Part shown: piece after piece, positions 25,398-28,521 of the stretch
Layout of the letters: the number at the start of each line of letters is the position of its first letter
Numbering within the stretch: the first letter of the stretch is position 1
IMG/VR virus record: IMGVR_UViG_3300030116_003118
Coordinates: 20,495 to 84,494 of that record
Length of the DNA: 64,000 nt
Direction: 5' to 3' (one strand)
Source: a virus
Translations under genes and position numbers: made by a program
The notes under the pieces: model-generated
The model's input: only the letters and a program-made list of their open reading frames with translations
Database searches by the model: none
What the model was told of the DNA's origin: nothing

Positions 25398-25426
25398 AGA
25401 ATAGGGGGTAATTACCCCCCTATTCT
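25398..25426. terminator. Hairpin at 3' end of the 25420..25965 gene
   Basis: AGAATAGGGGGTA-at-TACCCCCCTATTCT. Confidence 0.5.
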
Positions 25427-25965
25427 TCTTCCCCTCCGTCAATGAAGGATACAACAGGGTATCCCTCAGAATCGTAAGAGCCATCCCAATGATACTTCTT
25501 GGAAGTGTCATTGTTTGCGTGGGCGTTAAATGCACCATTCAGGAATGTGCGCTCCTTCTTGGTCATTTCCTTTGCGTATGCCTCTGCACCATCGGCCATA
25601 TCTCTGTAAAGAAGGCCACCGGACTTTCCGTGCGTTCTTAGGGTTGCGTAAATTGCGGGGTAAACCACATCTCTGCAAGCCACGAAATACACTTCATTGA
25701 GGTATAGGTCGAATTGAGACTTGGTTGCGATATCCATCAAGGATTTGCGGCCTTGTCCAATTGGAGAGTTAGCGACATCGGTGAATACACCGACTATGCT
25801 GTTCCAATATCTCTTTCGGGTGCTTGGGTTAGCGTCACCGAGAGTGAACATTGAACGAACCATTGCGGCCAAATCCGATTGTTCGGGGTTAGCCGCAAAC
25901 CACTCTTCCAAGTCTGCTTTCTTTGCGTTCCATCTGTTATCATCTATGCTGTTATCTGTTGCCAT
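25420..25965 (-). CDS. Hypothetical protein, HGKS...WDGS family, paralog 1
   Basis: 181 aa; LRTHGKSGG...YAKE...WDGS aligns by eye with 28012..28521. Confidence 0.8.
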   Translation of the reverse strand: MATDNSIDDNRWNAKKADLEEWFAANPEQSDLAAMVRSMFTLGDANPSTRKRYWNSIVGVFTDVANSPIGQGRKSLMDIATKSQFDLYLNEVYFVACRDVVYPAIYATLRTHGKSGGLLYRDMADGAEAYAKEMTKKERTFLNGAFNAHANNDTSKKYHWDGSYDSEGYPVVSFIDGGEEE

Positions 25966-26034
25966 AAATCATCATCTCCGTTGATTAGTAGGGTAGTACC
26001 CCCTATTATCTCCGTTCTATTAAATGCTACAGAA

Positions 26035-26075
26035 CATATATGGTTTTTATTTCACAAAGTATAACACCATATGGT
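26035..26075 (-). promoter_or_regulatory. Putative promoter: palindrome, CTTTG box, TATA-like box
   Basis: Minus strand ACCATATGGTgttataCTTTGtgaaataaaaacCATATATG, upstream of the gene starting at 25965. Confidence 0.55.
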
Positions 26076-27906
26076 TATGAAGTAGGCTACAAAAGAGTTC
26101 AGGCTACAGCCACTCGCACTCTATAGTGCGAATCTAAATGTGGTGAGATGTGCCTGAAATCTATTGTAGTCGCTCAATACCCCAAATCGGGTTTTGTCCG
26201 ACTCAAACAATAATAGACGGTAAATCAAGTTTTAGACTTAACCAATGCTGCTTTCGCTTAGGCTAGATACATTGTGTATCTTAGCAGCCTTAGAGCCTTC
26301 TTATTGATGTAGTTAATTTTAACAACATCAATAATTAAAACATGATAAACCATCTATTAACTCATCGGACAACCATATGGTTGAGTTTAGATAATAGTAG
26401 AACTTTCGAAACGTAAAGGAGGGCTTTCGAAAGTGCATACCTAGCGTGGTAATTCTCAATTACAGCCAAAGTGATAGCGTAGTATGCAGTATCGAAAGAA
26501 CGAGTTTAGGTTTCGAAAGGCTACTTATCATAAACGACACCCTATTTCTTTTGTCGGGTATAAACCTTTACGCTGCGTTATACGAGCAGCACATCCTTCG
26601 TGACGCTTTGGCTCTTATTATGAATAATCACTTCAATTGTACTGCCGTATAACGCGCTCTTTTTGTTTATTACCATATGGTTTTGCTTTGCGAATAAACC
26701 AGATTTCAAATTGAAGGATGCGAGTGATTATTGATTATGGGGGCAAATCTTCGGCATCACCTTAATTCCCCTCACTCGACTTATTTCCTTCAATGGGCTT
26801 GAATCTGAATGGGTTTTGTTTTGTGCTTTCCTAAGGCACTCTCAGACCCGACTGAGTAAATGAAAGTGTAGGGGAGATTATGTTTCCACATCTTCCCAAT
26901 TCCGAATGCGTGTTAGTTTTAAGAAAATTTGCTAAGTTTCTTATTAACGCCGGAATACCAGATTATGACCCCGCTAAGGGTTGTGTAGTGTGGTATCTTT
27001 TTCTTCAATCCCACTCCCTGCCCACTATAGGCTCTAATCTGTGCCTTACACCCTAACAACGGTGTTATTCAGCCACTACTTACCGGGTTGCACTCCCGGC
27101 ATTAGTAGGTAAGTAACCGAATATATGAGGTGTTCTTTCACAAAGTATCACACCATATGGTTACATAGTGTGAGTTTACGCCTAAGGCTGTATTTTGGGT
27201 CTCTTTCAATAAGAGAGTCCAAACGTGGCCAAAAGCCAGCGTTAGGCGTAAAGGAACCTTGATAACCTGACGGGTTGTCTTTTGTATTTGTAAGGCTGTC
27301 TTCGTTCAATTCAAATGGCAATCATAAAGTTTTACCTTGTTGTAACGCTTAGGCTCACTGTAATGACAGTGTACTAAGGCCGCGCACTGATTTGCGCTGG
27401 CCTGTAAAACATTATGTTACCATCTTCATCTTGCCAGCCTTTTGTTTTGTAAGACAACCATATGGTAAGGATAAACGTATGCTGGTGGTATAGGCTCTCT
27501 AAAGAGCCAATCTAAATGTTAAATACTTCCAGCATACGGAGATACACCAGATTTCTGGTCGGGTATTATGGAAAGTTTCGCTTAACTAGGGTGATAAACG
27601 GCGCAGGAAGGGTAAAGTTCTACGAAGCGTAAAACGTGTTGACTTGTATCTTGGATACATTTACTCTTTACCACTCCTGCGACCAGTTTCTCACTCCTAT
27701 TTAAGACTCAACTATTTCCTAAACCATATGGTACGATTAATTGAACAGATAGATGCCTTAATCGCTTCTGTTAAAAGTAGGCAACTGGGAAATCGAAACT
27801 GCCTACCTCCGTTTCGACTGGAAGTGTAAAAATTACACCTTCGCTCCGAAAAAAACGGCTTGTTTTTCCTTCTCGGCTTTCCAGACCCCTGAAAAACGCT
27901 ATCATT
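26076..27906 (+). other. Six consecutive palindrome-bounded, self-complementary non-coding segments (structured RNA or ssDNA)
   Basis: Long stems, e.g. 26403-26412/26510-26519, 26575-26584/26646-26655, 27175-27185/27242-27252, 27476-27485/27529-27538; no credible ORFs. Confidence 0.75.
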
Positions 27907-27944
27907 ACCATATGGTTCGGCTTTGTATAGAACCATATATATAC
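27907..27944 (+). promoter_or_regulatory. Putative promoter: palindrome, CTTTG box, TATA box
   Basis: ACCATATGGTtcggCTTTGtatagaacCATATATATA upstream of 28012, which has a GGTGA RBS. Confidence 0.6.
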
Positions 27945-28011
27945 TCGATGACCTTGCCAAGAATGCCCCCGAACAGAGGCAACGAATGATAAAAACAATA
28001 GGTGATAAAAG

Positions 28012-28521
28012 ATGGAAGATATTGAGTGGGATTCAGTAAAGATAAAAGTAAACACTATGCTTGAAGGAAACGCAGAAGTAGGTGACATACCTTCTGATGT
28101 CGTTACCCTAGCACAGATGTTAATAACGACAGGAGATAATAACTCCTCAACAAGAGATAGCCTGACTAACAGCATTAAGGACATGCTAAAGCCATACGCA
28201 GGATATCCGTGGAAGAGAGGCAATCAGGGCATTCTACCAGCCGCAGCCCGCGCTGTAGTAGATTCTGCAACTGATAACATCAGAGAAGCAGCAAGAACGT
28301 TCTTTAACGAGACTTCGCAGTATTCTCAGCCACTTCTGCGAAAGCACGGTAAGAGCAAGGGTTCCCCTGTTTACGCCGATGCTGACGAGTATGCAAACGA
28401 ACTTGCATCAAAGGCTCGTAAGGCAGCAACACAACTCTTCAAGGATGGAGAGTGGGATGGTTCGCTATCCGGCCTTGCTGCTTGTGCGGCTTATGATGAC
28501 GTAACTACGGAGGATGAGTGA
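28012..28521 (+). CDS. Hypothetical protein, HGKS...WDGS family, paralog 2
   Basis: 169 aa; LRKHGKSKG...YANE...WDGS; AGGTGA RBS. Confidence 0.85.
   Translation: MEDIEWDSVKIKVNTMLEGNAEVGDIPSDVVTLAQMLITTGDNNSSTRDSLTNSIKDMLKPYAGYPWKRGNQGILPAAARAVVDSATDNIREAARTFFNETSQYSQPLLRKHGKSKGSPVYADADEYANELASKARKAATQLFKDGEWDGSLSGLAACAAYDDVTTEDE

Follow-up and report, generated by a model that had tools for sequence, protein, structure and literature searches.

A conserved pair of acidic paralogs in palindrome-bounded cassettes of a probable magrovirus

The DNA analyzed here, called the window, is a stretch of 64,000 nucleotides comprising bases 20495 to 84494 of the 84,494-base virus record IMGVR_UViG_3300030116_003118, for which the completeness estimate is about 90%. 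Within the window, a cassette region separates a leftward structural block from a rightward replication block. The region carries two small, divergently oriented open reading frames (ORFs), A and B, which are the subject of this report.

25420..25965, minus strand: paralog A, 181 residues, orthogroup A; predicted three-helix bundle, PxGxGR loop, RTHGKSGG loop, WDGS hairpin and EEE end.
28012..28521, plus strand: paralog B, 169 residues, orthogroup B; architecture as in A, with the C-terminus TEDE.

A first-pass annotation, made from the letters alone, had described these ORFs as divergent paralogs that share HGKS and WDGS motifs, carry a P..G segment upstream, and are richer in guanine plus cytosine (GC) than their neighbors. 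All of this is borne out. A BLASTP comparison of the minus-strand and plus-strand products aligns them end to end with 45 of 164 positions identical (27%), 48.1 bits, and an E value of 4e-12 for this single comparison. The alignment includes LRTHGKSGG in A opposite LRKHGKSKG in B as well as the WDGS of both, and by this measure A and B are true paralogs. In a 25-row alignment that spans both orthogroups, W12, G72, H112-G-K-S-G116, W160, and G168 are invariant, while R110, Y120, K137, D161, G162, and one Glu close to the C-terminus are nearly so; in the P..G segment, G72 is joined by a nearly invariant proline. These residues are retained even by the distant member from locus L006, and both paralogs keep every conserved loop along with the acidic end. 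The family as a whole is acidic, with an isoelectric point (pI) of 4.6 to 5.3 in 30 of the 32 genes read from loci.

The GC content of A and B is 0.474 and 0.469, respectively, compared with 0.358 for the window. At third codon positions the values are 0.51 and 0.41; the 31 other ORFs of the window average 0.274 (standard deviation 0.045, maximum 0.36), which places A and B 3 to 5 standard deviations above them. Because the third position is raised, the higher GC is partly a matter of codon choice. The bias is kept across relatives, as all 32 family genes exceed the GC of their own locus. Among the other ORFs, third-codon GC is lowest, at 0.17, in the likely capsid gene (14631-15710), and the whole cassette region is also GC-richer.

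The window contains 13 copies of the palindrome CCATATGG, against an expectation of 0.82; none of 100 shuffles reached 13, and 12 of the copies lie within 23903-28650. Its 10-base form, ACCATATGGT, is found 10 times in the entire record, always inside window positions 24175-28651. The claim that each gene sits alone in a palindrome-bounded cassette and ends in a hairpin also held, with copies at 25365 and 26067 enclosing A and copies at 27908 and 28643 enclosing B. The control elements of the two cassettes are as follows.

26035..26075, minus strand: promoter of A; ACCATATGGT at 26066-26075, CTTTG box at 26055-26059 (CAAAG on the plus strand), TATA-like CCATATATG at 26035-26043, inferred start at about 26013.
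27907..27944, plus strand: promoter of B; palindrome at 27907-27916, TATA-like ATATATATAC at 27935-27944, inferred start at about 27965.
27914-27918 and 27930-27934, plus strand: stem GGTTC/GAACC of the B promoter, with a CTTTG loop at 27921-27925.
25364..25432, minus strand: 3' end of cassette A; hairpin at 25392-25432 across the stop codon, then a CAAAG-type box and the palindrome at 25364-25373.
28505-28534 and 28559-28601, plus strand: 3' hairpins of cassette B, the first with the stop codon in its loop, followed by a T-run at 28603-28609.
28611-28644, plus strand: 3' boundary of cassette B; stem GGTTCT/AGAACC with a CAAAG loop, and the palindrome at 28642-28651.

Upstream of A, B, and their orthologs, the elements follow a fixed order: CCATATGG, a T, 3 to 6 bases, (A)CTTTG, 4 to 10 bases, a complementary arm that pairs with the bases directly after the palindrome, and a TATA-like box such as CTTATATA. 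Of the 128 unique palindromes that have a CTTTG close by, 67 form a perfect stem of at least 5 bp starting from the GG of the palindrome, compared with 2.5 (maximum 8) in 200 shuffles. The stem arms vary from site to site yet stay complementary, with many compensatory changes. The spacing between palindrome and TATA box ranges from 8 to 24 bases across sites and therefore does not fit a -35/-10 pair. Judged by these elements (palindrome, covarying CTTTG-loop hairpin, and TATA box), the promoters of A and B are of archaeal type. Each gene is followed by GC-rich hairpins, then by a T-run and a palindrome-hairpin in the opposite orientation, and the gene ends fold more stably than shuffled sequence (z of -3.5 for the 11-bp stem of A and -6.1 for the two stems of B). 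A and B are each an autonomous transcription unit that runs from promoter to terminator. The full promoter form occurs four times in the window: leftward at 25365 (for ORFs of 77 and 242 residues), 26067 (A), and 27153 (an RNA resembling the manA motif), and rightward at 27908 (B). The palindrome at 25364-25373 that closes cassette A thus doubles as the head of the next leftward promoter.

The 2,046 bases between the start codons of A and B contain 7 palindromes and no third family member. Five palindromes of the region (23903, 24046, 26373, 27458, and 27724) have neither the CTTTG box nor the TATA element; they border non-coding segments of 130 to 480 bases, and three of them share a one-sided flank, CCATATGGTTGTC. 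A possible pairing of Glu codons with the 3' untranslated region was also considered. It was seen at 22 of 27 unique gene ends, but shuffled 3' untranslated regions gave a mean of 22.0 of 27, so the pairing is explained by composition.

Contigs from three public marine metatranscriptome runs of two studies were placed on window positions 22500-30500. All three runs contain RNA-library contigs over A (25462-25829, 25566-26013, and 25638-25872), and two runs of one study contain contigs over B (28023-28427, 28405-28562, 27965-28352, and 28333-28548). The manA-like RNA is covered in one run, and small pieces of two neighboring ORFs are present. In run X19, a contig stops at 26013 and a second one starts at 27965; both positions lie 26 bases beyond the predicted TATA center, a distance consistent with archaeal promoter geometry. 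From the contig ends and the TATA positions, transcription would start near 26013 on the minus strand and near 27965 on the plus strand. Contig depths (24.4, 27.5, and 4.5 for A; 10.5 and 13.8 for B; 63.4 for the manA-like RNA; 3.0 to 3.4 for neighbors) are unsuitable for ranking genes. Some stretches, such as 26238-26771 and 27306-27839, have no RNA-library contigs, and these gaps are not evidence of silence; a DNA run covered 30 of 30 bins of the same interval.

The pair is a lasting feature of this group of viruses. Two family members are present in 18 of 23 related virus contigs, and in each of the 5 contigs with a single member the gene lies less than 2 kb from the end of the sequence. 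In one further, distant contig, which was retrieved with A, a divergent second copy is likewise present. Among the 18 contigs, A and B point away from each other in 15 and run in the same direction in 3 (L011, L014, and L028). In a maximum-likelihood tree of 29 proteins, from which the near-duplicate or broken rows L012, L016, and L019 were omitted, the family splits into an A clade and a B clade with 98/98 support, and all 14 genomes have one member in each. The ratio dN/dS is 0.08 to 0.24 in 11 pairs, with one more pair saturated. By tree and substitution pattern, the duplication is old and both copies are selectively maintained. An old split, joint retention, and low dN/dS suggest that both copies are needed and, by extension, that they act together. 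A predicted complex of A with B returned a score of 0.00 and a mark of 0.32, which weighs neither for nor against pairing. Relative to locus L007, B has 96% amino acid identity (dS 0.45) and A only 76% (dS 1.48), as though the A cassette had been exchanged for one from a more distant virus. Five related contigs (L070, L085, L098, L104, and L107) have three family ORFs in the examined locus rather than two.

The first-pass annotation did not recognize the protein family, and none of Pfam, PHROG, NCBIfam, PADLOC, and the PDB names it. A word-indexed search found 11 relatives of A and 47 of B, from marine sources, and a joint profile of both collected 192 representatives at E<=0.001 (74 at 1e-10) in a scan of 1.84 billion proteins, nearly all 150 to 190 residues in length. 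As a lone protein query in the locus search A retrieved nothing; related loci were retrieved by alignment queries. There was no meaningful Pfam or PHROG match for any of 127 members, no match of A or B in NCBIfam or PADLOC, and no usable match for either in the ESM Atlas, while the best E value of the profile against PDB sequences was only 0.25. Two B-specific peptide patterns, the only queries used against 185,579 prokaryote species genomes, gave two short matches (24 to 38 residues) within long molybdopterin-oxidoreductase-like ORFs of two metagenome-assembled genomes, which were taken as chance. As far as these searches reach, the family is virus-only and uncatalogued.

Structure prediction and fold search were among the checks proposed alongside the first-pass annotation. 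AlphaFold gave locally confident models (pLDDT 84.7 and pTM 0.56 for A, pLDDT 92.2 and pTM 0.63 for B), but these matched no solved fold and resembled only generic bundles. The modeled layout consists of an N-terminal three-helix bundle, the conserved Gly-rich loop, and two long helices with the HGKS loop between them, followed by a short hairpin or turn carrying WDG and then the acidic tail. Foldseek found nothing in the PDB at E<=0.001 for either model. In BFVD the sole matches above noise were A0A516LI30 (E 2.5e-7, 28% identity over 174 residues) and A0A516LD61 (E 0.051), viral proteins with neither name nor function that are presumably family members. The wide VIA-align search returned generic bundles over residues 1 to 72 (best Z 6.3 and 7.3) and barely covered the C-terminal halves. 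The N-terminal 70 or so residues of the family also occur on other architectures, preceding cysteine-rich tails in five proteins (P0098, P0118, P0125, P0134, and P0143), following HEAT repeats in P0176, and standing alone in an ORF at locus L015 (10878-11129). The N-terminal bundle therefore appears to be a portable module.

Gene content suggests that the genome is that of an archaeal virus. The leftward genes left of the cassette region include those for portal and large terminase, and the rightward genes to its right encode a pyrimidine-dimer glycosylase, ribonucleotide reductase, a three-domain ATP-dependent ligase (N, M, and C domains), an RFC-like clamp loader, a RecA-like ATPase, a PD-(D/E)XK nuclease, a primase-like protein, and a split DNA polymerase:

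53545-55203 and 55459-56385, plus strand: family-B DNA polymerase (PolB) in two ORFs 255 bases apart, the break lying inside the catalytic domain by Pfam coordinates.

Among isolates, the best matches of the full-length PolB are to haloarchaeal tailed viruses at about 25% identity, and the large terminase has matches in Bacteroides phages and in Halogranum virus HGTV-1. No close isolated phage was found, as megablast and tblastn searches against isolated phages matched neither the region nor B. Philosof et al. 2017 (PMC5434244) describe magroviruses as tailed viruses of about 100 kb with a structural and a replicative block, and assign a PolB split in the catalytic domain, and likewise ribonucleotide reductase, to group B alone; RFC, an archaeal-type ATP ligase, and halovirus-like morphogenetic genes also belong to the description of that group. 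The split PolB, ribonucleotide reductase, RFC, three-domain ligase, terminase and PolB matches to haloarchaeal viruses, and record length of 84.5 kb all agree with it, so the genome is probably that of a group-B magrovirus, a tailed virus of Marine Group II archaea. The cumulative GC skew has its minimum at 27650-28100, where gene direction switches, and could mark an origin or merely the strand switch. The main text of PMC5434244 makes no mention of palindromes, promoters, repeats, or intergenic regions, and that of PMC11706807 none of palindromes, promoters, or non-coding elements. The literature search found no description of the protein pair or of the palindrome, and the papers that match its letters are, among the matches listed, apparently concerned with cloning primers.

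The first-pass annotation had put A and B forward as prime candidates for the protein component of the palindrome array. This is not supported, as the proteins are acidic, no DNA-binding fold could be recognized in their models, and the array shrinks in relatives: the 7 palindromes between A and B here are reduced in six related contigs to 2, those of the two promoters. The annotation's alternative, that A and B are immediate-early factors of host takeover, stays a candidate role, since the RNA-library contigs over both genes carry no timing. A and B look like cargo, because they share the palindrome promoter with two further elements. The first is the manA-like RNA (26863-27101, minus strand; promoter 27121-27160), which begins directly after its palindrome-hairpin-TATA promoter, has an RNA-library contig over 26859-27041, and matches RF01745 over the full length, although below threshold (32 bits, where the gathering score is 55.2; E 2e-6 on 701 bases). 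The second is the 77-residue ORF (25122-25355, minus strand; probably 62 residues from an internal Met), which is kept in 17 of 22 related loci at 35 to 75% identity, shifts position and strand among the cassettes of relatives, and has no family match in Pfam, PHROG, NCBIfam, or PADLOC scans.

The reading we favor, though tentatively, is that A and B are conserved cargo and not machinery of the cassette system, and that jointly they make up a factor, most likely heteromeric, that is abundant and acidic and acts without sequence specificity. It is possible that the two proteins work together during infection by binding a host or viral protein or a small ligand. The conserved loops (PxGxG, R-x-HGKS-G, and WDG, with their Arg, His, Lys, Ser, Trp, and Tyr residues) may form a binding or catalytic site. 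Since the N-terminal bundle is portable, it is taken as the putative docking or pairing part, which would leave the HGKS/WDG half as the working part. Several points weigh against this proposal. The putative heteromer is deduced solely from the co-retention of A and B, and core-like retention in nearly all relatives is unusual for accessory or anti-defense cargo. Strict co-location with the palindrome would equally be expected of a palindrome-binding regulator. Because the likely capsid gene has a third-codon GC of 0.17, high expression by itself does not account for the raised value in A and B. The RNA-library contigs carry no strand, level, or timing information, and such libraries may contain DNA. 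Finally, the magrovirus label was given from gene content and stands as probable.

Alternatively, the pair may serve the virion or its assembly. Both proteins would then be made in abundance as scaffold, as internal (ejected) proteins, or as decoration, and the N-terminal bundle would be the module that targets them to the capsid. Small, helical, acidic proteins that are apparently well represented in RNA libraries would suit this role, as would the core-like conservation, the portable N-terminal domain on differing C-terminal halves, and the direction of A, which is usually that of the structural block. However, the genes lie outside the morphogenetic block, their promoter class is confined to the cassette region within the genome, B is directed toward the replication block and holds a fixed position beside it, and no PHROG head or scaffold family was matched. 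On balance, a virion role is unlikely.

A small enzyme or ligand sponge is less probable still. In this case the R-x-H-G-K-S-G loop, the PxGxG loop, and the conserved Trp and Tyr would form a pocket for phosphate and base, for example to hold a nucleotide signal of host immunity. The idea draws on the invariance of H112-G-K-S-G116, W12, W160, and G72 and near-invariance of R110, Y120, K137, and D161 in both orthogroups, on the presence of all these residues in both paralogs and the L006 member, and on abundance, which suits a stoichiometric binder. It remains purely inferential, with no similarity to nucleotide-binding families and a motif that fails the Walker A pattern, G-x4-G-K-[ST]. Five residues ahead of the G-K-S, where Gly or Ala would be expected, orthogroup A has Thr (TLRTHGKS) and orthogroup B has Leu (LLRKHGKS). 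A P-loop NTPase was rejected on further grounds, as none of 127 members matches a P-loop Pfam family at E<=0.01 and the motif falls in a long interhelical loop in both models.

About as improbable as the enzyme or ligand role is that the pair is a trans-acting dimer or heterodimer that binds ACCATATGGT or the flanking hairpin and switches cassette promoters or promotes exchange at the joints. Co-occurrence with the palindrome array, a further check proposed for the annotation, speaks for this in part. All family genes with enough flank are palindrome-bracketed, with one copy about 100 bases ahead of the start codon and another about 120 bases beyond the stop, and this holds even in the most distant contig found. 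In a pattern scan of flanked loci, a family ORF was present in 41 of 45 with at least 3 palindromes, compared with 2 of 34 with one or two. A symmetric site fits a dimer, autoregulation is common, and relatives of the N-terminal domain carry cysteine-rich, zinc-finger-like tails. The other part of the co-occurrence did not hold, as a complete 90.8-kb relative has 12 palindromes in the examined locus but a single weak family match, and a 75%-complete relative with 4 palindromes has none. All examined contigs also come from one virus lineage, so that the association may reflect mere descent. The proteins are acidic, and the matches of their N-terminal bundles are all to generic bundles, none of them above Z 7.3. 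No helix-turn-helix, ribbon-helix-helix, or zinc finger domain was found by Pfam, PHROG, NCBIfam, or fold search, a missing match that is compatible with such a fold. Another regulator candidate is available in the ORF at 29251-29862, which adjoins B in 18 of 22 loci and weakly matches a transcription-regulator PHROG (E 0.006). The most improbable of the proposals casts A and B as a novel type of structure-specific DNA-binding heterodimer, which would sit on the palindrome-hairpin joints, activate the promoters, and perhaps catalyze or guide the flipping and swapping of cassettes.

The closest known parallel to the cassettes is found in T4-type phages, where promoter-early stem-loop (PeSL) cassettes hold small genes, mostly of unknown function, between repeated modules of promoter and stem-loop (Arbiol et al. 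2010, PMC2839356). The two systems are alike in that A, B, and their orthologs are flanked by palindrome, stem, and TATA box upstream and by hairpins and an inverted module downstream. Both also lie in a plastic region subject to shuffling; here, A is inverted in 3 of 18 contigs, the number of palindromes between the pair varies from 2 to 7, and the 77-residue ORF is mobile. The unequal divergence of A (76%, dS 1.48) and B (96%, dS 0.45) between the same two genomes is a further likeness. PeSL modules differ in their sigma-70 promoter, in place of which an archaeal-type TATA box is found here about 26 bases before the ends of RNA contigs. The invariant 10-base palindrome at each joint and the inward-facing hairpins at both ends set the present cassettes apart as well, and while PeSL cargo is dispensable, the A/B cargo is core. 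Integron cassettes are likewise single-gene units separated by a repeated structure-forming site, but in the present cassettes every unit brings a promoter and a terminator of its own, and inverted copies of the site lie at its borders.

Single-stranded DNA-binding (SSB) proteins such as T4 gp32, T7 gp2.5, and E. coli SSB are abundant and acidic overall, with an acidic C-terminal tail for partner binding. A and B are similarly acidic with an acidic C-terminal tail, whereas SSBs have an OB-fold (oligonucleotide/oligosaccharide-binding) and the A and B models are helical. An OB-fold SSB was rejected, as the models comprise five to seven helices and at most one short hairpin. Magroviruses are reported to carry an ssb of their own in the replication block (PMC5434244).

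Within an otherwise fluid cassette region, A and B form one of few protein-coding units that are kept in nearly all relatives. The hosts of magroviruses are uncultured, and to our knowledge nothing is known of how magroviruses control infection. The pair offers a well-defined target, as both proteins are small and soluble, and their expression and testing do not require the host. Magroviruses reportedly rank with the most abundant viruses in surface ocean waters (PMC5434244). If A and B were a structure-specific heterodimer, they would be the protein half of an archaeal-virus cassette system without known counterpart. Binding to the palindrome joints, if true, would explain a new regulatory and shuffling system, and binding to host factors would give a first handle on how Marine Group II archaea are taken over.

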